Origin: Thermoplasmata archaeon
GTDB lineage: Archaea; Thermoplasmatota; Thermoplasmata; RBG-16-68-12; SOIM01
DNA: 64,000 nucleotides
Direction: 5' to 3'
Assembly (NCBI GenBank): GCA_023140195.1
Contig: JAGLME010000032.1
Coordinates: forward strand, 52,220-116,219
In this document: positions 8,985 to 63,433 of the stretch, piece after piece
Layout: each line of letters starts with the position of its first letter
Position numbering within the stretch: the first letter of the stretch is position 1
Program-made: the position numbers and the translations under genes
Notes under the pieces: generated by a model
What the model was told of the DNA's origin: nothing
What the model saw: the letters and a program-made list of their open reading frames with translations, nothing else
Database searches by the model: none

Positions 8985-9056
8985 GCCACCGTAGCTTAGC
9001 TGGTAGAGCGGCTGATTTGTAATCAGCAGGTCGGGAGTTCAAATCTCTCCGGTGGC
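8985..9056 (+). tRNA. tRNA-Thr (anticodon UGU)
   Basis: 72-nt cloverleaf with acceptor GCCACCG/CGGUGGC, D-arm GCUU...GAGC, anticodon stem GCUGA/UCAGC with loop UUUGUAA, and T-arm GGGAG-UUCAAAU-CUCUC. CCA is not encoded. Confidence 0.85.
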
Positions 9057-9206
9057 TTCCATATCTGGTTATTTTCATTCTGTCATAATTATATAATACG
9101 TTCTTTGGACTACTTCCGAAGCGAAAAGAAGTAGGGTAATCCTACGTATGCATGTAGCGGCTTCAAACAATTTCTGTGGCACTGTTAGTTTGTTGGTTGT
9201 GTCAAA

Positions 9207-29002: not shown

Positions 29003-29139
29003 CCAAAGGTTCACGACCCCCGAAGGGGCTAAGCTTCCCGTGGGCTCGCGCACCACAGTACCGCAGAGAACGTAGGCGGGCTTAACTTCTGGGTTCGGGA
29101 TGAGACCAGGTGTATCCCCACCGCTATGGCCGTCATACC
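29003..29139 (-). rRNA. rrf: 5S ribosomal RNA, isolated and not linked to 16S/23S. Ends are approximate.
   Basis: The minus-strand sequence aligns to archaeal 5S from loop A through GGGAAGC (GGCCATAGCGGTGGGGATACACCTGGTCTCATCCCGAACCCAGAAGTTAAGCCCGCC...GGTACTGTGGTGCGCGAGCCCACGGGAAGC). The 3'-terminal portion is atypical and contains a CCCCUUCGGGGG hairpin. Confidence 0.75.
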
Positions 29140-49700: not shown

Positions 49701-50705
49701 ATGAACGCCAAGGAGGCCCTGCCCAGATATTTCCGTGTTCTGGACGAGAAGGAACTGCCCTATTACATGATATGCAAGGGGGTTCCAGTGCGGTCATCTT
49801 TGGATTCTGAGACATACCTGCTTTGGGAGGAGCACGCAGAGCTTGTGGAGAAGGTCAGATCGATCAGGGTGCCCTCCCCGGTTGCTGAGACGAACCTGCT
49901 GGATCTGAAGATCGAGCTTGCGAGAAGGATGCTAAATCCCTGCCGTCTCTGCGAAAGGAAATGCAACGTGAACAGGTTGGATGGGGAGGCGGGGTACTGC
50001 AGGGTCAAGGAGTCCAAGGTCTCATCCAAGTTCGTGCACTGGGGCGAGGAGCCGGAGCTTGTGCCTTCGTACACCATCTTCTTCTCCAGATGCACCTTCG
50101 AATGCGTTTTCTGTCAGAACTGGGACATAAGCCAGAGGGATACTGGACAATACATTTCAACGGACGATCTGGCAAACTCGGTGGAGAGGATGTTAGGAGG
50201 CGTGCGGAACGTTAACTGGGTAGGTGGGGATCCAACACCAAATCTGGTCTACATTCTGGAGGTTCTGAAGAGCTGCAACGCCAACATACCCCAAGTCTGG
50301 AACTCGAACATGTACCTGACCGAAGATGCAATGGCTCTCTTGGATTGCATCACGGATGTGTACCTTGCTGACTTCAAGTATGGAAATGACAAGTGTGCTG
50401 GAAGACTATCCCGGATAACGAGATACTTCGAGGTCGTTTCAAGGAATCATGCGATTGCCAATAAGCAAGCTGGGATCGTCTTGAGGCACCTGGTTCTGCC
50501 TGGTCATATTGAGTGCTGTACGAAACCAATAATGGATTGGATCGCGGAGAACCTGGATACATCTCGAATAAGGGTAAATGTGATGGACCAGTACCGTCCA
50601 GAGTACAAAGCCAGAGATTTCGAAAGATTGGAGAAGCGTCTGTCCCACAAGGAGTTCCTTCAGGCATATCGTTATGCCGAGGGTCTAGGTCTGAACATCA
50701 TCTGA
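49701..50705 (+). CDS. Radical SAM protein, PflX-like (COG1313; pyruvate-formate-lyase-activating-enzyme-related)
   Basis: N-terminal CxxC..C..C (CRLCERKCNVNRL...YCRV) and a radical SAM CX3CX2C (FSRCTFECVFCQNWD). Confidence 0.75.
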   Translation: MNAKEALPRYFRVLDEKELPYYMICKGVPVRSSLDSETYLLWEEHAELVEKVRSIRVPSPVAETNLLDLKIELARRMLNPCRLCERKCNVNRLDGEAGYCRVKESKVSSKFVHWGEEPELVPSYTIFFSRCTFECVFCQNWDISQRDTGQYISTDDLANSVERMLGGVRNVNWVGGDPTPNLVYILEVLKSCNANIPQVWNSNMYLTEDAMALLDCITDVYLADFKYGNDKCAGRLSRITRYFEVVSRNHAIANKQAGIVLRHLVLPGHIECCTKPIMDWIAENLDTSRIRVNVMDQYRPEYKARDFERLEKRLSHKEFLQAYRYAEGLGLNII

Positions 50706-53700
50706 TTCCTCCAATGATTGTCCCTCAGCATCAACGTTATCGGGTTCATCCTCTTTGTCAGAATCCCTCGTTTTCCTATACCAGAGGTAGGGAATTAGAA
50801 GTAAGACAACAGCGACTATGATAACCAGAATCACCACAGGATACAGCAACACCGGGGGACCATCAGGGTGAGGGTGACAGCTTCCCGTTTGGACAGTCGT
50901 GTATGATGGTATGAAGTCGGTTTCGTTGGATGACACGACAAGATTGTATGCCCCACCACACTCGACACTGTCTGGAATAACGAATGTGGTTGTGATGATT
51001 CCATTCTCTCCGCTGACAGTGAAGGCTTCTGTACCGACTAACGTCGTGTCGAGGCTCTCAAGTCGAAGAATCAATTCGACACCTTCGACCCCTTGTTCTG
51101 ACCCAACCTCGCGCACCCAACCATCGACAAGGATTTCCTCTCCTCCATCGATCCTCTGGCCCTCAGTTGGGTTGTAGACTGACACGTAGATGTTTGTGGG
51201 AGTCGGATTGTAGGTTTCCTGGACATAGAACGTTTCATCCAGCGAAGCCCAATTTCCACTTGAATCCACTGCCCATATCGTCACGTTGTAGTATCCAGCC
51301 AAAGGATATATCTGGCCGAAGTAGTACGGCGTCCCTGGATTCATGCTGTTGTTGGACACCTGCAGATTCGGATCCTCAATGACGATCCAAACACCCGTGA
51401 GTTCGTAGTTGTCGGTGACAATAGCAGAAATGTTGACGTATTCGTCTTGTTCAGGATTAGTGGGAACGTATCCCCAATTGTCTATTGTGGGTGGCGTCAA
51501 GTCCACCACTTGGAACTGCCCCGTCGTCCAATTCCAGTTCCCGGAGGAATCTACCGCCCACACCGTCATGTTGTAATATCCAGCCATGGGGTATATTTGG
51601 CCGAAATAGTAAGGCGTCCCTGGATTCATGCTGTTGTTGGACACTTGCAGATTCGGATCCTCAATGACGATCCAAACACCCGAGAGCTCATAGTTGTCCG
51701 CTACAATGGCAGAGATGTTTATGTAGTCGTCTTGTTCGGGGTTAGTAGGACTGGATTCAAGATTGATAATTGTGGGTGGCGTCAAGTCCACCACTTGGAA
51801 CTGTCCCGTCGTCCAATTCCAGTTCCCAGAGGAATCCACTGCCGATATATTGAAATCATAGGTTCCAAGCACATCCCAATTGCTGACATTGTAGAATCTG
51901 GTTCCCAACGAGTCCAGAGTCGTGTTGATCGGAGGCAATATAGGGGGCGTGAACTCGATCCTAGCGCCGAACACTCCAAAATCGTCGAAGACATCAGCTG
52001 ATATGTTGATGCTGTTGAACACCTCCAGTGGGGAAGGAATCTGAGTGAGGTTCTCTATGACGGGTGGTTGTGTATCCGGTGCAAGTGCGGTCCTGAAGCT
52101 CCAGCTGTAGAGCGAAGCCAAACTGTTACCTGGGTCTGAATCGTCAGTTGCTAGTGTTGTAAAGTTCGCTGTATACCAACTGGCAACAGCCAGGTCAAAG
52201 TCCGGGTTGAACGAAAAGACTGTACCCATCCAGCTCATTTGCCCAGTAACCGTTGTCCAAGAGGCATTGTCCTTGAGGGAGAACGATACGTTCGTTATCG
52301 GCATGTTCATCAGTTCGCTCCAGGTCGACTGCAGTAGAGCATTCGTTGGTACATTCTGTGTCCCGTCCGACGGAGCTACCGAGATTACGATAGGTCGCGT
52401 CGAATCGATCTCGAACACGGTGCTTGTTCCCGAACCAGTTGCACCTTCTGAGTCCACCACCTCAGCCTCAATGTACGCCGTGGTTGAGTCCACCATCGGC
52501 AAAGTCCAGAGATATGGTGAGGAGTCCCCAGCGATTGGCCCCACTATCGGAAGCCAAGGAGCACCCCCGTTCAGAGAGTAGTTGAGCCAGACTTGAAGAG
52601 AAGAGGACGGATTCTCCGTATCGGAAGCAGTGAAAGAGACGAAATGGTTCGAATTGCCAGTCCAGACTTCTCCACCTGCAGGTATGTCCACCAACACTGT
52701 CGGTGCTACGTTCTGGGTTTCAGTCGTGAACGAGAAGCTCAGCATGCTATCAAGCGGATTTCCTGGTGAAGAAGCATCCACAGCGGTCTGAAGAAGAGTC
52801 ACGAAATATGTTTGGCCATACAAGAATGAGTTGTGAGTCCCGGTAAGGTTGTCATTCGGATAGGTGATCGAGGACCATGCCCAAGACCATCCGAATGGAT
52901 TTGGTATCACGCCCATGGATGATATGACCGAGTTAGTGTCCATACCCTCATTGAATTGGATGAAAATAGGCTGATCAATTGGCATATCAATGGCCCCGTT
53001 CTCGGGAATCGTATAGAGCACGTTCGGAGGCGTCGAATCGATATCTGAGATCATTATCTCATCCCAGTTCACCAGACCTCCCGGGTCAAAGACCGTTAGG
53101 TTGATTGTCGCATCAGTCGCGTCGATCGATGGCGTTGTCCAAAGATAAGAGTTCGGATTTGCAGTTCCAGCCATGGGTCCCGCGATGGTGCCCGTTGAAG
53201 CTCCAGTGTTGTAGCTGTAGTTGAGATAGACGAGGAGGTTGGAGTTAGGGCTGTCGTCGCTCATGTTCCACCAAATGGTGTGAGCGGTATTGCCCGTCCA
53301 ATTCTGGAGACCTGTAGGATAACTGAATGAGACCTGTGGTCTGAAAACTGGCGGTGCTCCCTGCTTGTAGACGCGCACTCCTGACGTGCTTGTGGCAGCT
53401 ATGTCTTGTACCCCATCATTGTCCATATCTCCGAAGTCCACTCCCCAGTACTTTCCCGTGGTGGGAATCCCTGACACTCCCGGATTGGACCAGATCATCG
53501 AACCGCTTGCTCCCCCATTACCTCTCATATATCCAATACCTGTCGCCCCCGCGTTATCCACGCTCGTGAAGATCAGGTCAGAGTTGCCATCGAGGTTGGT
53601 GTCGCCAATATCCACTCCACCGAACCGACCTGTCGCCGGGAGACCGGTATCTGCTGGTGTCCAGATCATGGTTCCTCCAGCTCCTCCGTTGCCCAGCCAA

Positions 53701-55700
53701 ACATGCATTCCTTCCCATCCTGCAGTGAACCCAGTACCGACAAGATCGGGATTCCCGTCATGATCAACATCAGCGAAATCGAGGCCCAGCCAGACGTTGG
53801 TTGTTGGCAACCCTGTATCATTCCTCGTCCAGCTCCCTGGTAGACCAGTTCCATCCCCGGTCCAGAGTTGAGTGCCCAGGTTGTTCATCGCGCTGGCGGC
53901 AAAATCCAGATGGCCGTCATGGTTGACGTCCGCAACTGCAACATCATCCACGTTTATGATCTCTCCAGGCGGCCCCATGTCCGTGGTCCAAGTGAAATCC
54001 CCGTTCCCCAAGTAGATCATCGGACCCCAGTTGTTCTCCCAGTATCCGGTTATCACGTCTAGATTGCCATCATGGTTAAGATCGACGAGCTCCAATCCCG
54101 CACCAGACTCTGCGGCAACCAGCCCCATCTCGGTCCATGACCCAGCCCCATCTCCGCTGTATGCATGGATTCCGTTGCTTCCTCCGCCGCCGTCTTGGGC
54201 GACTATCAGATCCATCGTCCCATCGTGGTCAATGTCCGCGAACCTCAAACCGCTGAAGTCCCCTGATGTTGGCAGGCCATTTGAGGCGAGCGTCCAAACA
54301 CCGGTGCCATCCCCCAGGAAGACCCTGATCCCTTGGTTTTGTCCCTGGAAGCTTGTGATGCCGATGTCAAGTCTTCCGTCGTGATTCACATCTGAGAACT
54401 GAACATCCGCCCATGTATTGAGCGTGGGCAGGTTGATTGAAGCTGAAACGTACGAGTCAATGATGAAATCGGCTCTGTCGTTCTGCCATATCTCGACACC
54501 TTGACTAAGGCCTGCTACGAAGTCGATTTTTCCGTCGTTGTTGTAGTCTCCAGCATCCACGGCTAGGTAGCTTCCGGCTGGAAGTCCCGTGGAGGTCTCT
54601 GTCCAGTCCATTGTTCCTCCGTCGCCGCCGTCGCCCAACCAAGACCTCAATCCTCCGCCGAAGTAACGCCCTGCGAATATGTCCAGATCTCCGTCGTCGT
54701 CGATGTCTTCCAGTGCAACCCCGAGCCATGAGAACGTGTTCGTCTCAAGTCCGGCTGAGTTCTCGGTCCAGACCATCGATCCTCCGGCGCCTCCGTTGCC
54801 GAGCCAGACCCTTACCCCGTTGCCCGAATAATAGGCGGTCGAGACCACATCCAAGTTTCCATCGAGGTTGACGTCACCGAGATCGACGCTGGCGTAGGGC
54901 TCCGTTTCCGGCAGACCTGTCCCCGTGTAAGCGTCGGTCCATAATGCCGAAGGGCCACTGAGCCCGTTCCCGGTCCACGCCTTTATTCCGTTGTTTCTGT
55001 CCGCACAGACGATGTCGGGCTTGCCATCGTGGTCAATGTCCCCCACAGCAGGCTTCCAGAAGGCCCCTATCGCAGGAAGGCCTGTGGATGATTCTGTCCA
55101 TACAATGCTCCCACCGGCACCGCCATCTCCCGTGTAGACGTGAACCCCGTTGTCGTCACCTGCGATAATGTCCATCTTGCCATCGAGGTTCATATCCGCG
55201 GCGGTTGCAGAGAACCATGATCCTGGGTCGCTGTCAAAGGTCCATGTCATCGAACCCCCCGCACCCCCATCTCCGAGATACACTCCATCGCCAGCCAGGT
55301 CCAAGTTCCCATCGTTGTTGAAGTCTGCCAGAATGACCTCATATGAATTCCCCGCAGGGATCCCGGTGGACTCCTCTGAAAAGGACCCAGCTCCATCGCT
55401 GACATAGACATGCATCCAACCCGTGGCTGTGGCCGCGGCTACGTCCAGGTTGCCGTCGTTATTGACATCTCCATATTCTACGGTGTAGAACTCTCCGGTC
55501 GATGGGAGCCCGTTGGTGATAGGCGTCCAGTGACTCTCTATGGGCTCGGAAAGATGGGGAACAACATCGTTCAATGTACTGCTAGATGGACTTTCAAGTG
55601 CAGGAAGCAAGGCACTGGCTGCAAACAAGCAACAGATCAAGATTGCCATTGCTCTGGGCGAGCTTGCCCACAATCGGCTCGTGCGTTTGCGTATGCCCAT
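50685..55700 (-). CDS. Giant (1671 aa) secreted cell-surface protein. It has a signal peptide, at least 13 FG-GAP/integrin-alpha-type beta-propeller repeats (D-x-[DN]-x-D-G-x-x-D), then tandem Ig/fibronectin-like domains, then a C-terminal TM anchor with an acidic cytoplasmic tail.
   Basis: Signal peptide MAILICCLFAASALLPA. Repeats such as DFNNDGNLDLAG, DVNHDGRLDIG, DIDHDGTMDLIV. C-terminal LLYPVVILVIIVAVVLLLIPYLWYRK plus a DE-rich tail. Confidence 0.85.
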   Translation of the reverse strand: MGIRKRTSRLWASSPRAMAILICCLFAASALLPALESPSSSTLNDVVPHLSEPIESHWTPITNGLPSTGEFYTVEYGDVNNDGNLDVAAATATGWMHVYVSDGAGSFSEESTGIPAGNSYEVILADFNNDGNLDLAGDGVYLGDGGAGGSMTWTFDSDPGSWFSATAADMNLDGKMDIIAGDDNGVHVYTGDGGAGGSIVWTESSTGLPAIGAFWKPAVGDIDHDGKPDIVCADRNNGIKAWTGNGLSGPSALWTDAYTGTGLPETEPYASVDLGDVNLDGNLDVVSTAYYSGNGVRVWLGNGGAGGSMVWTENSAGLETNTFSWLGVALEDIDDDGDLDIFAGRYFGGGLRSWLGDGGDGGTMDWTETSTGLPAGSYLAVDAGDYNNDGKIDFVAGLSQGVEIWQNDRADFIIDSYVSASINLPTLNTWADVQFSDVNHDGRLDIGITSFQGQNQGIRVFLGDGTGVWTLASNGLPTSGDFSGLRFADIDHDGTMDLIVAQDGGGGSNGIHAYSGDGAGSWTEMGLVAAESGAGLELVDLNHDGNLDVITGYWENNWGPMIYLGNGDFTWTTDMGPPGEIINVDDVAVADVNHDGHLDFAASAMNNLGTQLWTGDGTGLPGSWTRNDTGLPTTNVWLGLDFADVDHDGNPDLVGTGFTAGWEGMHVWLGNGGAGGTMIWTPADTGLPATGRFGGVDIGDTNLDGNSDLIFTSVDNAGATGIGYMRGNGGASGSMIWSNPGVSGIPTTGKYWGVDFGDMDNDGVQDIAATSTSGVRVYKQGAPPVFRPQVSFSYPTGLQNWTGNTAHTIWWNMSDDSPNSNLLVYLNYSYNTGASTGTIAGPMAGTANPNSYLWTTPSIDATDATINLTVFDPGGLVNWDEIMISDIDSTPPNVLYTIPENGAIDMPIDQPIFIQFNEGMDTNSVISSMGVIPNPFGWSWAWSSITYPNDNLTGTHNSFLYGQTYFVTLLQTAVDASSPGNPLDSMLSFSFTTETQNVAPTVLVDIPAGGEVWTGNSNHFVSFTASDTENPSSSLQVWLNYSLNGGAPWLPIVGPIAGDSSPYLWTLPMVDSTTAYIEAEVVDSEGATGSGTSTVFEIDSTRPIVISVAPSDGTQNVPTNALLQSTWSELMNMPITNVSFSLKDNASWTTVTGQMSWMGTVFSFNPDFDLAVASWYTANFTTLATDDSDPGNSLASLYSWSFRTALAPDTQPPVIENLTQIPSPLEVFNSINISADVFDDFGVFGARIEFTPPILPPINTTLDSLGTRFYNVSNWDVLGTYDFNISAVDSSGNWNWTTGQFQVVDLTPPTIINLESSPTNPEQDDYINISAIVADNYELSGVWIVIEDPNLQVSNNSMNPGTPYYFGQIYPMAGYYNMTVWAVDSSGNWNWTTGQFQVVDLTPPTIDNWGYVPTNPEQDEYVNISAIVTDNYELTGVWIVIEDPNLQVSNNSMNPGTPYYFGQIYPLAGYYNVTIWAVDSSGNWASLDETFYVQETYNPTPTNIYVSVYNPTEGQRIDGGEEILVDGWVREVGSEQGVEGVELILRLESLDTTLVGTEAFTVSGENGIITTTFVIPDSVECGGAYNLVVSSNETDFIPSYTTVQTGSCHPHPDGPPVLLYPVVILVIIVAVVLLLIPYLWYRKTRDSDKEDEPDNVDAEGQSLEESDDVQT
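51230..51830. repeat. Two near-identical 285-bp tandem repeats (with a third diverged copy upstream) inside the FG-GAP protein gene, encoding 95-aa Ig-like modules (AVDSSGNWNWTTGQFQVVDLTPPTI...)
   Basis: Long near-identical DNA blocks at about 51313-51560 and 51598-51845. Shadow ORFs on the opposite strand repeat the same peptide. Confidence 0.65.
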
Positions 55701-58338: not shown

Positions 58339-58557
58339 CTATCTCATCCTCTCCAACTGTGAAGCTCTGACCTCCTGCTTCTTGGCCTTCTCGTCGAGCT
58401 TCTTGGCGGATTCCCTCAGTTTCGCTGCCCGAGCCCTCAGCCTTCCGGCCTGGACCCTCGCCTTTGCCGCCTTCTGTTGTCTAGCAGCTCTAGCCTTGGC
58501 AGCCTTGGCGCTTTTGACTTGATCCTTTGCCTGCCGCACCGTCCTTTGTTGTTGCAT
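58339..58557 (-). CDS. Small highly basic Ala/Lys/Arg-rich helical protein (72 aa), function unknown
   Basis: An ORF with a TATATAT box 27-34 bp upstream (leaderless geometry). Composition resembles nucleic-acid-binding basic helices. No recognisable family. Confidence 0.4.
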   Translation of the reverse strand: MQQQRTVRQAKDQVKSAKAAKARAARQQKAAKARVQAGRLRARAAKLRESAKKLDEKAKKQEVRASQLERMR

Positions 58558-58643: not shown

Positions 58644-59159
58644 CTACTCTATCTTGATTTTGTGGGGTTTGGCGTCCTCGGTTTTGTTGAGAACGACGTC
58701 AAGGACGCCGTTCCTAAAAGTCGCCTTTATCGATTCTCCGTCAACACCGCAGGGGAGTTCAATCTCCTTCTGTATTCTCCTGTGTTGGTCGTCAACATTT
58801 ATAGTCATTCTCCGGCCATCAATGTCGACGTCAATGTCATCCTTTTCGATTCCTGGCAGTTCAACCGTGACTGAGATCGTGTCCCCCCTCTCGATGATAT
58901 CCGAAAGGGGTTCCCTGCTAACTCCGTTGCCGACGCTCTCGCCGCTCCCAACCGCATCTCCGAACCTCTGGAAGACCGGCTTCCCATCATCCGGACCTGT
59001 GCGCACGCTGAACCCATACACGAAAGGCTCAAGGTCACCCTTGTCCCTTAGAGTTCGGTCGGCCATCATGTCCATCATCTCTCGGATCCTGTCCCATTCC
59101 CGGTCAAAGAAACCGAAGGAGTCATCGAACGGATGTTTCCTCTTCTTTTCGTCGTTCAT
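58644..59159 (-). CDS. hsp20: Small heat shock protein, Hsp20 / alpha-crystallin family
   Basis: Alpha-crystallin domain ([26 protein letters not shown]...[12 protein letters not shown]). 4-bp overlap with the upstream cdc48 gene. Confidence 0.9.
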
Positions 59160-61351
59160 GCTATCTCAACTCCTTCTCTGCCGAGTTTGCCTGTGAAATC
59201 CACATACTTCTCCAACTTCTTCTTTTCGGTTCCGCGGACCTTGTCCATTGCCCTTTGGAAGTACTTGTTTGATATCTTCCTTTTCGCTATCCTCTCTTCG
59301 CTGAGGTCGCCCCCTTCCAGAACGAAGTCTCTAATCGAAAGCATGGTGGCCTCATTGCTAACACTCGCTATGTCGGCACCTGTGAAACCTTCTGAGTCTC
59401 TGGCGAGAACATCTATGTCCACATCCTTCGCTATAGGCTTGTCCCTTGTGTGGATTTCGAATATCTTCTTTCTCGCTTCCAGGTCCGGTACGGGTATGTA
59501 TACTAGTCGATCGAATCTCCCCGGTCTCAGCAGTGCTGGGTCGATGATGTCAAGCCTATTCGTTGCAGCGATGACAGTCACGTTGTGAAGATCTTCCAGG
59601 CCGTCCAGTTCTGTTAGTATCTGAGAGATGACCCTCTCAGTCACATGCGAGTCGGAGTTGCTTCCTCTGACGGGTGCAATGGCGTCCAGCTCGTCAAGGA
59701 AGATGACGCACGGGCTTGCCTGCTTTGCCTTCCTGAACGTCTCTCTGACCGCTTTCTCGCTCTCTCCGACCCACTTCGACAGGAACTCGGGGCCCTTCAC
59801 ACTGATGAAGTTGGACTCCGCCTCCGTCGCTACCGCCTTTGCGAGGAGCGTCTTTCCGGTTCCAGGTGGACCGTACAGCAGCACCCCTTTTGGCGGTTTT
59901 GCGTTCATGTGTTCGAACAGCTTCCCATATTTCAGGGGCCACTCTACCGTCTCCATAAGCTCTTGCTTGGCACCTTCCAGTCCTCCTACATCTGTCCACC
60001 GGACATCCGGCGATTCGATGAGGACCTCCCTCAAGGCAGATGGGGCCATCTCTCTAAAAGCGTCATTGAAATCATCAACTGTGACGATTATCTTGTTCAG
60101 TATTTCGACCGGAATGCTCTCGACTTCCAGATCGATCTCGGGCAGTATCCTTCGAAGTGCCCTGATCGCGGCTTCCTTGGCGAGGGCCGCCAGGTCCGCA
60201 CCCGCGTAACCATGGGTCATGTTGGCGAACTTCTTCAGGTCGATGTCCTCGGCCAGGGGCATTCCTCTGGTGTGGATCAGTAGAACCTCATGCCGTCCCC
60301 TCTTGTCAGGGATACCGATCTCGATCTCCCTGTCGAACCTTCCCGGTCTTCTGAGTGCCGGGTCAAGTGAATCAGGGCGATTGGTAGCTCCGATCACGAC
60401 GACTTTTCCTCGGGCCTTCAAACCATCCATCAACGCCAGAAGCTGGGCCACGACCCTTCTCTCCACCTCTCCGCTGACCTCATCTCTCTTTGGTGCAATG
60501 GAATCTATCTCATCGATGAATATGATGCTGGGGGCGTTTTCCTCTGCCGTGTTGAAGATCTCCCTGAGGTTCTCTTCGCTCTGTCCGTAGTACTTGGACA
60601 TGATCTCCGGTCCAGACAATGAATGGAAATTTGCTTGGGTCTCACTCGCGACGGCCTTTGCGAGAAGGGTCTTGCCCGTTCCCGGCGGACCGTGCAGTAG
60701 CAGTCCCTTGGGCGCTTCCACGCCAAGCTTGTCAAAAAGTTCAGGATGTCTCAGGGGCAGTTCGATCATCTCCCTGACCTTCTTCACCTCGTCTCCGAGG
60801 CCTCCTATGTCCTCGTAACTGACCTTAGGGAGTGACAAAGTCTCCTCTTTCACCGGCTTATCGCTTATCGTGACCCGTGTGGTTCTCTGGATTATGATCG
60901 CATCTGATGAGGGGGAGAACGAGACCACCACGAGGTCGATCTTCCTCCCCATCACATTCAGCTCTACGATATCTCCCCTGGAGATCGCTCTTCCTTCCAG
61001 TATCTGGGATATGTACTGCTCTCCGCCCACTATCCTCAAGGGCTCGGTCAAAGCCAGTTTCACCTTCTCCGCCATCTTCGCCCTTGTTTTCCTGATTCCC
61101 ACCTTCTCGTCAATTCCTACGTCAGCGTTCTTTCGGATCGATCCGTCAATCCTGATGACGCCCCTGTTCTCATCCTCTGGGTAGCCGGGCCAGCAGATCG
61201 CGACGGTCTTCTTTTTGCCTTCGACTAGGACGACGTCCCCTGTTGTGAGGCCAAGGATGTTCACCACCGCTGGGTCGATCCTGGCTATTCCCCTTCCGAC
61301 ATCTTTGGGCTTTGCCTCTGCAACTCTTAGAATCTTATCATCTTCACTCAT
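59156..61351 (-). CDS. cdc48: CDC48/VCP-like AAA+ ATPase (N-domain plus two AAA modules)
   Basis: Two Walker A sites (GPPGTGKT x2), two SRH regions, and a CDC48 N-terminal double-psi barrel. Confidence 0.95.
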
Positions 61352-61372
61352 GCTACTTCCCCGCTTAACTTA

Positions 61373-61387
61373 TTAACCTTAGGTTAA
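61373..61387. promoter_or_regulatory. Palindromic operator TTAACCTTAGGTTAA (7-1-7), core of a conserved 25-bp box CTTATTAACCWTAGGTTAACAACCT. It lies between the TATA box and the cdc48 start codon, over the predicted TSS.
   Basis: Perfect inverted repeat. The same box recurs upstream of the adjacent wHTH regulator gene at 62324-62338. Confidence 0.6.
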
Positions 61388-61397
61388 CAACCTTGAG

Positions 61398-61408
61398 TTT
61401 ATATATAG
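61398..61408 (-). promoter_or_regulatory. TATA box (TTTATATATAG on the plus strand) for the cdc48-hsp20 operon
   Basis: AT-rich TATA about 50 bp upstream of the cdc48 ATG, with the operator about 25 bp downstream of it. Confidence 0.45.
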
Positions 61409-61434
61409 TGCCCCCCACTATTTAAACATTACGA

Positions 61435-61608
61435 CTAGGATTTCCTTTTGACAGTTATCGGGATCACGGCCTTGTCAAACTCCATCATGGCGATTGTTAT
61501 TGCGTCTGTCAAGTTCTTGGGGATTTTCAATAGAACGGGTGCTCCCAGCGAAATCTGCAAAGCTCTGGCCCCGATTATCCGTGCCTTCTCGAAACGTGTG
61601 TAGTTCAT
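61435..61608 (-). CDS. rpoK: DNA-directed RNA polymerase subunit K (Rpo6, omega homologue)
   Basis: Manual translation of the minus strand: [57 protein letters not shown], matching RpoK ([14 protein letters not shown]). Its start ATG overlaps the regulator stop (ATGA). Too small for the ORF track. Confidence 0.85.
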
Positions 61609-62282
61609 GCTCCTCCCTCAATTACTATTTCGCTCTCTCCGAGCCTCCTCAGCATGTCCTTGACGACCTTCTCCCTCAGATTGAGTCTCTCCGAGATCCT
61701 CGCAAGGTTTCTATCCGCCTTACCCAGCATGTAGTAGAGCAGCCGTCTCTCATCGTAATCCCGGTTCAACATCTCGACTGCGGTATGTGCTTCTCTCATC
61801 GCCTCGTTCTTCAGCCCCATCAACTGGGCCCTTTTCGCCTCGAGGTCGTTTATCTCCTCATCTATCCTGTGTAGGAAATCGGATATCTCATTTAACCTTT
61901 TCTTGGGATCATCTGTAGAAAGGAGCTCGTTCCACTTCTTTTCCAACTCCTTGTACTCTCCCTCGAGCTTCGTCTTCACGTTAAGTGACTTCAACTCGGC
62001 GCTGAACAGGTTGGGAGCGTAGTCTATCATCAAGGAGAAATTGTAGCTGGCGACGTAGCATTTCCTCTCCGGGCCACCGGCATCGCTCTTTTCCGGTTTG
62101 CATTTCACTAGGTTGAAGTTCTCCAGCACCTTCAGGTGCTTTACGATGGCCTGCTGGCTCACCTTCAGTTCCTTTGAGAGCTGTAGGGGGTAGTGTCTCT
62201 CCCTTGAGATCTTCTGGAGAATTCTCCTTCTAGTCGGGTTCTCAAGCACTGCCAGGATCTCGTCTAGTGAATGATCGGTCAT
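61605..62282 (-). CDS. ArsR-like winged-helix regulator with a long C-terminal coiled-coil, the Phr-type heat-shock regulator architecture. The internal start MTDHSL is preferred; the longer ORF start would place the operator inside the CDS.
   Basis: wHTH ([49 protein letters not shown]) plus a ~110-aa helical tail. Palindromic box about 42 bp upstream of its ATG. Adjacent to the hsp20/AAA+ operon that carries the same box. Confidence 0.7.
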
Positions 62283-62323
62283 TTCAATATTCCTTTCTTC
62301 GTTGATTCTCATAACACATCTTA

Positions 62324-62338
62324 TTAACCATAGGTTAA
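62324..62338. promoter_or_regulatory. Second copy of the palindromic operator (TTAACCATAGGTTAA), upstream of the Phr-like regulator gene. Probable autoregulatory site.
   Basis: The same 25-bp box as at 61373-61387, with only the central dinucleotide differing. Confidence 0.6.
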
Positions 62339-62395
62339 CAACCTGCATTAACTACATAGCCTATTAACTACTTGAATCTACCGAGTGTGTGGACC

Positions 62396-63433
62396 CTATC
62401 CGCGGGGTCTCTTCTCATCCAATCTCTTCTTCTCCACCCGGAGGATTATCTTGCTGGCTCCGCACTTCGGACATTGATTGACGAAGTCTGAGGAAACAAA
62501 TGTCCCGCATTTCCTCTCACCTCTGCACATGATCTCATAAAAGACATCCATATCGCCCACATTCTCATAGAACTCCACGGTCCTTTCCGATCCGAAGACC
62601 GCCATATTGTCGCTGAGGTGACCTAGAGAGAAACCGTGGTCGATTCTGGAAACGATCTCGTGAGTTTCCGGGTCCATGAACACGGTCCCGCCTTCAAGGA
62701 TGACCAGAATCACTCCATTCGAGACAATATGTCTAACATGATTGGGAAAGCTCTCTTTCCAAAGCGACTCACCTTTTGAATCTAAGGCATGGACCTCTCT
62801 TCCGGAAGCTAGATATATCTTCCCCCCAGCAGAGACAAGCGATGAGATTCCCTTGTCGAATCCCATATCCCATTGGACCGCTCCTTCACCGTTCACCTCG
62901 ATTATTGAATCTTCAGTAGCCACAATGAAGTGGGATCCATGTCTGATAATGGCTTCCGCCTTGACCTCAAGCTGGACCTTTCCGAGCGGTTCCCAGTCTG
63001 GATCGAAAGCGTGCAGTTCATTCCCTGCAAGGAGATCGACCGTCTCGCCCGCTAGGACCTGCACCGGTTCGCTGTCCAGTGGTATCTCCTTCTTCTCATC
63101 CCCATCCGAGTTGAGAAAGGTCAAAGCATCCTTGCACGCCACCACGATTCCGCCGTCAGGGAGCGGGGCCAGGTCACGGAAGTCGCTCTTCAAACCCTGC
63201 CTCCACCGCATTTCCCCGTCCAGATCGAACGCTCTCATGATCCTCCTGGAAGCCACAACCACGCCCCTTCGGCTAATAAGATGGCTCAGACCCAGAATGG
63301 TATCACCTACATCACGCTTCCATATGATGGCGAAGTTCACAGGAGATGGATTGCGAGGGCGATTAAAAAGTCTTCGTTCCTCAATCTTGGAGCACCATAC
63401 TTCGATATTTTCATTCTCAAGAATCAGAGCCAA
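62396..63433 (-). CDS. PQQ/WD40-like beta-propeller repeat protein with a C-terminal C4 zinc ribbon
   Basis: Repeated beta-strand blades (GKIYLASGREVHALD; GGIVVACKDALTFLNSDG) and the C-terminal CPKCGASKIILRVEKKRLDEKRPRG following CGTFVSSD (CxxC...CxxC). Confidence 0.6.
   Translation of the reverse strand: MALILENENIEVWCSKIEERRLFNRPRNPSPVNFAIIWKRDVGDTILGLSHLISRRGVVVASRRIMRAFDLDGEMRWRQGLKSDFRDLAPLPDGGIVVACKDALTFLNSDGDEKKEIPLDSEPVQVLAGETVDLLAGNELHAFDPDWEPLGKVQLEVKAEAIIRHGSHFIVATEDSIIEVNGEGAVQWDMGFDKGISSLVSAGGKIYLASGREVHALDSKGESLWKESFPNHVRHIVSNGVILVILEGGTVFMDPETHEIVSRIDHGFSLGHLSDNMAVFGSERTVEFYENVGDMDVFYEIMCRGERKCGTFVSSDFVNQCPKCGASKIILRVEKKRLDEKRPRG

Follow-up and report, generated by a model that had tools for sequence, protein, structure and literature searches.

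What controls the heat-shock genes of a Thermoplasmata archaeon, and why does the gene for a core RNA polymerase (RNAP) subunit stand among them? Both questions arise from a 64-kb stretch of contig JAGLME010000032.1 (assembly GCA_023140195.1, positions 52,220 to 116,219), hereafter the window, to which all coordinates refer. Reading its open reading frames (ORFs) placed four genes on the minus strand: a regulator, called REG here as gene and as protein (61605–62282; 225 aa; Pfam HTH_5/ArsR, 8e-11); rpoK, for RNAP subunit K/Rpo6 (61435–61608; 57 aa); cdc48, for a VAT-type AAA+ ATPase (59156–61351; 731 aa; Pfam CDC48_N 1.4e-29, CDC48_2 and two AAA domains, 9e-100); and hsp20, for a small heat-shock protein (58644–59159; 171 aa; Pfam HSP20 1.8e-11), the second gene of the cdc48-hsp20 operon. 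A 25-bp box stands before REG and again before cdc48. Sequence and predicted fold make REG a remote member of the ArsR-like regulators on their Phr/SurR branch, with Phr the closer of the two, and we consider it likely that an autoregulated repressor circuit of the Phr/HSR1 type acts at both boxes.

The box, CTTATTAACCWTAGGTTAACAACCT, has exactly two copies in the 64 kb, as the original prediction stated: box 1 at 61369–61393, 18–42 nt upstream of the cdc48 ATG, and box 2 at 62320–62344, 38–62 nt upstream of the REG ATG. Allowing up to three mismatches gave no further copy in the 64 kb, and shuffled sequences put the number expected by chance at 0.00. The perfect 7-1-7 palindrome predicted for the box is present in box 1 (dyad 61373–61387), but box 2 has a 6-3-6 dyad instead (62324–62338; TTAACC-ATA-GGTTAA). 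At their core the boxes read TTAAC-CTWAG-GTTAA, and TAAC-N5-GTTA occurs in the 64 kb at these two sites only. In gene orientation, on the minus strand, box 1 is AG-GTT-GTT-AAC-CTAAG-GTT-AAT-AAG. The underlying architecture is a pair of GTTn3AAC palindromes spaced 14 bp from centre to centre, of which the second is degenerate. The extended motif GTTn3AACn5GTT is matched exactly at 61375–61391(−) in box 1 and at 62326–62342(−) in box 2, and the window holds three matches to it compared to 0.27 expected.

Both boxes occupy the same place relative to promoter elements. The cdc48-hsp20 promoter has the TATA box TATATATAAA (61398–61407, minus strand) 4 nt upstream of box 1, and the dyad centre of box 1 (61380) falls about 22 nt past the TATA centre, at the distance expected for a transcription start site (TSS) in archaea. 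Box 1 is therefore between the TATA box and the operon and over the predicted TSS, as had been proposed. Upstream of REG, the 113-nt spacer that separates it from the preceding ORF carries box 2 and a weak TATA-like element, TATGTAGTTA (62349–62358, minus strand), again at 4 nt from the box; the same position reads TTATATAC in the relative L004 and TTATATGG in L005 (relatives' loci and contigs are numbered with the prefix L). The REG promoter also holds a direct repeat, GTAGTTAAT...GTAGTTAAT, upstream of box 2 (62346–62373, minus strand). L001–L005 and L011 retain the distal copy (AAGTAGTTAAT / AAGTAGTCAAT), which is similar to the GGTTAATAAG portion of the box and might serve as an additional half-site or as an element of the region of the TFB-recognition element (BRE).

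The start of REG was placed at the ATG at 62282, which is conserved in homologs; readings of 235 and 247 aa were rejected, as their starts fall within or adjoin the box and lack conservation among homologs. A sequence search of the PDB with REG returned the Phr structure 2P4W as the best match (E 4e-18, residues 5–154) and SurR (PF0095) as the second (4e-11, residues 9–214, including the C-terminal helix-turn-helix (HTH)-like part). The same order was found among NCBIfam families: NF053602 (Phr_regulator) was the top family at 7e-20 over model positions 3–144 of 191, with 71.4 bits against a cut-off of 320, and NF047699 (SurR) the second at 3e-15, with 56.4 bits against a cut-off of 250. The proposed Phr-type assignment thus stands for REG as a distant homolog. 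The AlphaFold (AF2) model of REG, built on 53 homologs, has a mean predicted local distance difference test (pLDDT) score of 90, and a Foldseek search with it again placed 2P4W on top (E 1e-10 over 213 columns). In the model, an ArsR-type winged HTH (wHTH) domain (residues 6–78) is followed by two β-hairpins (82–99), a long helix (126–172) and a C-terminal three-helix HTH-like bundle (176–216). The ArsR-like wHTH and the long helix of the predicted coiled-coil tail were therefore borne out, while the tail additionally carries the predicted bundle. The bundle gave weak Pfam HTH matches; searched alone against the PDB, the C-terminal domain found nothing significant (SurR at E 0.32), and its role as a second DNA-binding domain remains a prediction. 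No CxxC motif is present in the 225-aa sequence, and no cysteine column among the 53 homologs is invariant or at least 90% conserved. Identity as a metal-sensing ArsR/SmtB protein was rejected, as REG scores 46.6 bits, below the subfamily cut-off of 55, and has no metal-related neighbours.

The pairing of box and heat-shock gene is retained across relatives. In a comparative set of the window and 14 loci (202 kb), 24 of the 25 matches to GTTn3AACn5GTT lie at most 100 nt upstream of REG, hsp20 or cdc48. Relatives in which the same box precedes one of these genes have REG proteins 39–96% identical to that of the window (31% in one case). When promoters of the same orientation were aligned, the TATA box stood in fixed register, 4–6 nt upstream of the box; the operator geometry proposed from the window, with a box past the TATA element at both promoters, is conserved at equivalent promoters down to about 40% REG identity. 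The genes around REG are rearranged among these lineages. L001–L003 (REG identity 88–96%) have the layout of the window, L011 (75%) has REG-rpoK-hsp20-cdc48-hsp20, L004 and L005 (71% and 66%) have REG-rpoK-hsp20, L010 (48%) has hsp20-REG-rpoK, L006 (49%) has REG-cdc48-hsp20, the arrangement of HSR1, L009 (42%) has REG-101aa-hsp20-cdc48-hsp20, L008 (44%) has hsp20-REG-grpE-dnaK-dnaJ, and L007 (40%) has REG beside a Cpn60_TCP1 gene. In the lineages examined the neighbours are heat-shock genes throughout and never hydrogenase or sulfur genes.

The comparison also refined the motif. TAAC-N5-GTTA was rejected as a family-wide motif, being confined among the relatives to L001–L004, and was therefore replaced by GTTn3AACn5GTT / AAC-N5-GTT, which covers 10 of 11 regulator loci. 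At the hsp20 promoter of L004 the second unit is complete and forms a fully symmetric 23-bp site, GTTGTTAAC-CTAGG-GTTGACAAC; it is likewise complete in some other relatives. In L007 the only sites are a GTAAC/GTTAC palindrome with N4 spacing and one CAAC-N5-GTTAAC. A scan of metagenomes with the 19-mer GTTGTTAACCTNNGGTTAA returned 91 stretches, most of them chance matches or unrelated repeats, as expected for the size of the database. In 13 of the 91, from lineages of 38–68% GC, hsp20, cdc48 or REG lies beside the box (in L020, on the same contig); in a fourteenth contig, L075, the same site recurs together with a near-identical hsp20-like ORF, but tblastn gave no match. The 91 stretches yielded no new kind of regulon member, only further hsp20, cdc48 and REG promoters. 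Taken across genomes, the conservation of the box is strong phylogenetic footprinting for a putative REG–operator–chaperone regulon.

Several loci of this comparison have features of their own. In L008 (4425–9362) the order is box-hsp20-REG-grpE-dnaK-dnaJ, and grpE begins 11 nt past the REG stop codon. In L007 (5001–6525) the REG homolog lies directly upstream of a 236-aa Cpn60_TCP1 (thermosome-family) ORF, and the promoter of this ORF holds the palindrome GTAAC-N4-GTTAC, spaced by N4 where the usual box has N5. Two metagenome contigs from one sample series, L030 (3735–3800) and L048 (1400–1510), carry arrays of about five GTTnnnAAC-like units with a period of 14–15 bp, for example GTTGACAAC-n6-GTTGCAAAC-n5-GTTTGCAAC-n6-GTTGTTAAC-n5-GTTAACAAC. 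A zinc-ribbon ORF precedes these arrays, and their vicinity holds no heat-shock gene. A conserved non-coding stretch follows the array in L048 and the single box in L022 and L068.

Among characterized systems, Phr (PF1790) of Pyrococcus furiosus and other Thermococcales is the closest to REG in sequence, family and fold matches. Bound to 29 bp over the TSS, Phr keeps RNAP from being recruited; its site lies downstream of the TATA box, it regulates its own gene, and it controls hsp20 and an AAA+ ATPase, among others, through a separate site for each (PMC10746257, PMC9133787). REG shares with it an ArsR-type wHTH that leads into a long helical (dimerization) part at the C-terminus and has a putative operator at its own promoter (box 2) and at cdc48-hsp20 (box 1), likewise in relatives; the boxes of the window begin 4 nt downstream of TATA and lie over the predicted TSS, which would fit the Phr geometry. 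The two differ in that REG is only about 29% identical to Phr and belongs to a host of a different class, the sequence of its last 60 residues aligns to SurR and not to Phr, and its operon carries rpoK. The published Phr elements (TTTA, TGGTAA and AAAA) are only loosely similar to the boxes (TGGTTAA in box 2).

The original prediction had held the motif to be different from that of known regulators; the box in fact contains the HSR1 core TAAC-N5-GTTA (PMC9133787) and an exact SurR motif, GTTn3AACn5GTT (PMC12162507). HSR1 (AF1298) of Archaeoglobus fulgidus was compared by its published site, gene order and regulon content. It binds CTAAC-N5-GTTAG, is autoregulated and has hsp20 downstream (PMC9133787). 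The site of the window, TTAAC-N5-GTTAA, agrees with that of HSR1 at 8 of 10 positions, with an identical TAAC-N5-GTTA core and outer bases T/A instead of C/G. Autoregulation (predicted for REG), a regulator co-directional with hsp20 and an AAA+ ATPase in the regulon are further likenesses, and the REG-cdc48-hsp20 order of L006 is exactly that of HSR1. In the window, by contrast, REG is not in one operon with the heat-shock genes, as rpoK and a second TATA box with operator intervene. Both the Phr and HSR1 regulons include a small heat-shock protein and an AAA+ ATPase, and thermosome subunits are reported to lie outside both (PMC10653856).

SurR (PF0095, Thermococcales) recognizes GTTn3AAC and, in its long form, GTTn3AACn5GTT (PMC12162507), a grammar identical to that of the boxes, with GTTn3AAC units phased 14 bp apart. 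It is the second-best sequence and fold match of REG, and both have a C-terminal HTH-like domain (predicted in REG). REG lacks the CxxC redox switch, found at positions 24 and 27 of SurR (PMC12162507); its box neighbours are chaperones, not hydrogenase or sulfur genes, and the position of the site implies repression only. HrcA/CIRCE of bacteria is a functional analogue only: an autoregulated repressor acts there too at an inverted-repeat operator of chaperone operons, but protein fold and operator sequence are unrelated, and REG would act on the archaeal basal transcription machinery. In many bacteria hrcA lies upstream of grpE-dnaK-dnaJ, and REG of L008 occupies that place.

We infer the following mechanism. 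REG, most likely as a dimer, would bind an operator of two GTTn3AAC units, 14 bp apart and the second degenerate, that begins 4 nt past the TATA element at two promoters, that of REG-rpoK and that of cdc48-hsp20. Lying over the TSS, the bound repressor would leave TBP (TATA-binding protein) and TFB (transcription factor B) free to bind and would block the recruitment of RNAP, as shown for Phr. Heat or proteotoxic stress of a general kind would release the repressor from the DNA and lift the repression of both units. From the REG mRNA, rpoK would most likely be translated through a GGAGG ribosome-binding site encoded by the last codons of REG.

Several points weigh against this mechanism. The scores of REG are far under the curated cut-offs for Phr (71 versus 320 bits) and SurR (56 versus 250), so that function is transferred over a large distance and REG is not an ortholog by that criterion. 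The TSSs are predictions from TATA spacing, and the TATA box of REG is weak. No clear oligo-T terminator is present between rpoK and the cdc48 promoter, so that transcription may in reality follow a more intricate pattern, and rpoK may be served by an unconventional internal promoter. The stimulus may not be heat, since the source metagenome-assembled genomes (MAGs) are apparently from marine sediment or cold seeps, judging from record names only.

The predicted coupling of rpoK to the regulator has support at the sequence level. The rpoK product exceeds the thresholds of the NCBIfam equivalog NF002208 (100.5 bits versus 57) and Pfam RNA_pol_Rpb6 (31.5 versus 26). The predicted overlap of the REG TGA with the rpoK ATG, as ATGA, is present in the window and recurs in L001–L005 and L011; the junction is a 10-nt gap in L010, and in L070 (REG 45% identical, GC 68%) the choice of rpoK start makes the two genes either overlap by up to 13 nt or stand 6 nt apart. 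Linkage of REG and rpoK, whose conservation the original prediction had left to be checked in relatives, is kept in all nine loci of one subclade (the window, L001–L005, L010, L011 and L070), with REG identities of 45–100%. An ATGA junction is ordinary in this genome: the cdc48 stop and hsp20 ATG overlap in the same way, with an AAGGAG Shine–Dalgarno sequence inside the cdc48 3′ end, so that the overlap alone proves little. The Shine–Dalgarno sequence of rpoK, GGGAGGAG (61610–61617, minus strand), is encoded by the last codons of REG (E-G-G-A). Across the linked loci these codons (E-G-G-A/E or D-G-G-G-E) spell GGAGG 3–8 nt before the rpoK ATG, or, in L010, a GGAGG-type signal lies in the gap instead; the signal is conserved wherever rpoK follows REG. 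All 16 homologs of at least 62% identity have a Gly-Gly tail whose last codon is NNA, and none of the more distant ones in the alignment does, the DNA context (rpoK linkage) having been checked for seven homologs of this clade; the rpoK-linked REG of L070 has a similar tail, ...EWGG. With the Shine–Dalgarno sequence inside the REG coding sequence, any rpoK mRNA from an internal promoter must start further upstream, within REG.

An internal promoter for rpoK, which the original prediction had named as the finding that would make the overlap incidental, was sought with a position weight matrix built from the local TATA boxes. The matrix scored 8.3–12.5 on real promoters in register and no higher than 6.5 at any point of the REG coding sequence, which holds no convincing TATA-like site and none conserved in position. 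An AT-rich stretch 12–22 nt upstream of the rpoK ATG was discarded as a promoter, as it is too close and not conserved in L004, L005 and L011. Where rpoK is not linked to REG (L012–L014), as in Aciduliprofundum (rpoK alone) and Methanomassiliicoccales (rpoK-rps2), a clear A-rich BRE and TTTATA lie 33–45 nt upstream. We judge the linkage to be a derived trait of one subclade, on this sequence comparison. The most economical reading is a dicistronic REG-rpoK mRNA from the box-2 promoter, and on balance rpoK is probably made mainly from the REG transcript.

The surroundings of rpoK also differ between clades. In the Methanomassiliicoccales loci L013 (4001–4795) and L014 (4001–4796), rpoK has its own promoter and is followed by rps2 and a Memo-like gene. 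In the clade of the window, rpoK is close to a mevalonate-kinase-like gene with no rps2 or Memo between, which suggests that a heat-shock cassette was inserted into a conserved block or replaced part of it. The backbone of the subclade consists of rpoK, a gene for a basic protein of about 75 aa and the mevalonate-kinase-like gene, with heat-shock genes placed variably around it.

Three other explanations were weighed against the circuit and its rpoK branch. The one of most weight accepts the regulon but has rpoK expressed mainly from its own promoter inside REG, with the ATGA overlap a product of genome compaction and rpoK constitutive rather than wired to stress. An RNAP subunit is presumably always needed, which makes a tie to a repressed promoter seem risky; archaeal promoters can be weak or atypical, that of REG itself having a degenerate TATA element, and the cdc48/hsp20 junction shows how ordinary an ATGA overlap is here. 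No TATA-like element inside REG, however, comes near the scores of the real ones or keeps its position, the ribosome-binding site of rpoK is within the REG coding sequence, the tight junction is retained in all nine linked loci at REG identities down to 45%, and BRE and TATA are obvious where rpoK stands unlinked. A negatively autoregulated promoter, moreover, gives a steady basal output that suits a housekeeping gene. We regard a separate rpoK promoter as unlikely, though the most serious of the three.

REG might instead be a SurR-like activator/repressor that responds to redox state or sulfur and not a heat-shock repressor. Both boxes match GTTn3AACn5GTT exactly, and the full-length SurR alignment spans residues 9–214 with the C-terminal HTH-like part, yet CxxC is missing, Phr outscores SurR in every comparison, the C-terminal domain, taken by itself, shows no significant similarity to SurR (E 0.32), chaperone genes and no hydrogenase or sulfur genes are the neighbours throughout the lineages examined, and a box downstream of TATA is in the position of a repressor. 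This identity is very improbable. The boxes could also be a chance or structural repeat that no regulatory protein recognizes, for instance a terminator hairpin or what is left of a mobile element, a view to which the mere two copies in the window and the unrelated or chance nature of most metagenome 19-mer matches lend some colour. Zero copies are expected by chance, however, a stem with a loop of 1–3 nt cannot form a stable hairpin, Rfam returned nothing at the region, and the position of the box relative to TATA and start codon is kept across lineages of 38–68% GC. On the sequence evidence, the cross-genome conservation at promoters effectively refutes this reading, to which we give next to no credence.

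The remaining features of the window lie around this locus. First in 5′ to 3′ order on the minus strand is a PQQ-like β-propeller/zinc-ribbon ORF (62396–63433, minus strand; 345 aa) with a C-terminal CxxC...CxxC zinc ribbon, which is kept directly upstream of REG in L002, L004, L005 and L070. The spacer between rpoK and cdc48 holds the cdc48 TATA box and box 1. Beyond hsp20, a very basic 72-aa ORF rich in Lys, Ala, Arg and Gln (58339–58557, minus strand) has its own TATA box, TTATATATTC, and no match in Pfam or NCBIfam. An ORF of similar size (72–77 aa) occupies the same place in L002, L004, L005, L010 and L011, between the heat-shock genes (rpoK in L010) and the mevalonate-kinase-like gene. 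Further along, a 1,671-aa surface protein with FG-GAP/VCBS-like repeats and a C-terminal transmembrane anchor (50685–55700, minus strand) contains a long internal near-duplicate segment (...SSGNWNWTTGQFQVVDLTPPTI... is present twice); L004 and L005 have homologous giant genes in syntenic position. The Rfam search found no RNA family in the region of the boxes, its sole matches in the window being a 5S rRNA gene (29018–29137, minus strand) and a tRNA gene (8985–9057, plus strand).

Phr and HSR1 are described as the only characterized archaeal heat-shock regulators, both from hyperthermophiles (PMC9133787, PMC10653856), and our literature search found no paper linking Thermoplasmata with Phr-type regulation. 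The circuit is of a known archaeal kind and does not overturn current understanding; new are the presence of a Phr/HSR1-kind regulator in a further class, Thermoplasmata, an operator grammar that stands out more clearly and rpoK as an unusual passenger gene. Circuits of this kind appear to occur across Thermoplasmata, Methanomassiliicoccales-type MAGs among them; a Cpn60/TCP1-domain (thermosome-family) gene and grpE-dnaK-dnaJ are neighbours of REG in certain lineages. The operator model, [GTTn3AAC]-n5-[GTTn3AAC] at 4–6 nt after TATA, offers a means of regulon prediction in uncultured archaea and is useful for annotation. The comparison points to a single grammar behind the HSR1 and SurR motifs; more speculatively, phased GTTn3AAC units would unify the sites of Phr, HSR1 and SurR as one mode of DNA recognition.

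The linkage of rpoK provides a testable example of a core transcription-machinery gene under a stress repressor. We put forward only tentatively, as possible but rather doubtful, that in one subclade the supply of RNAP subunit K (Rpo6) is wired into the proteotoxic-stress circuit, the subunit being made solely from the mRNA of the autoregulated repressor and rising with the chaperones on release. Were this true, rpoK would have left its usual rpoK-rps2 context. The Rpb6/omega family stabilizes and assembles the largest RNAP subunit, and such wiring would fit that role.

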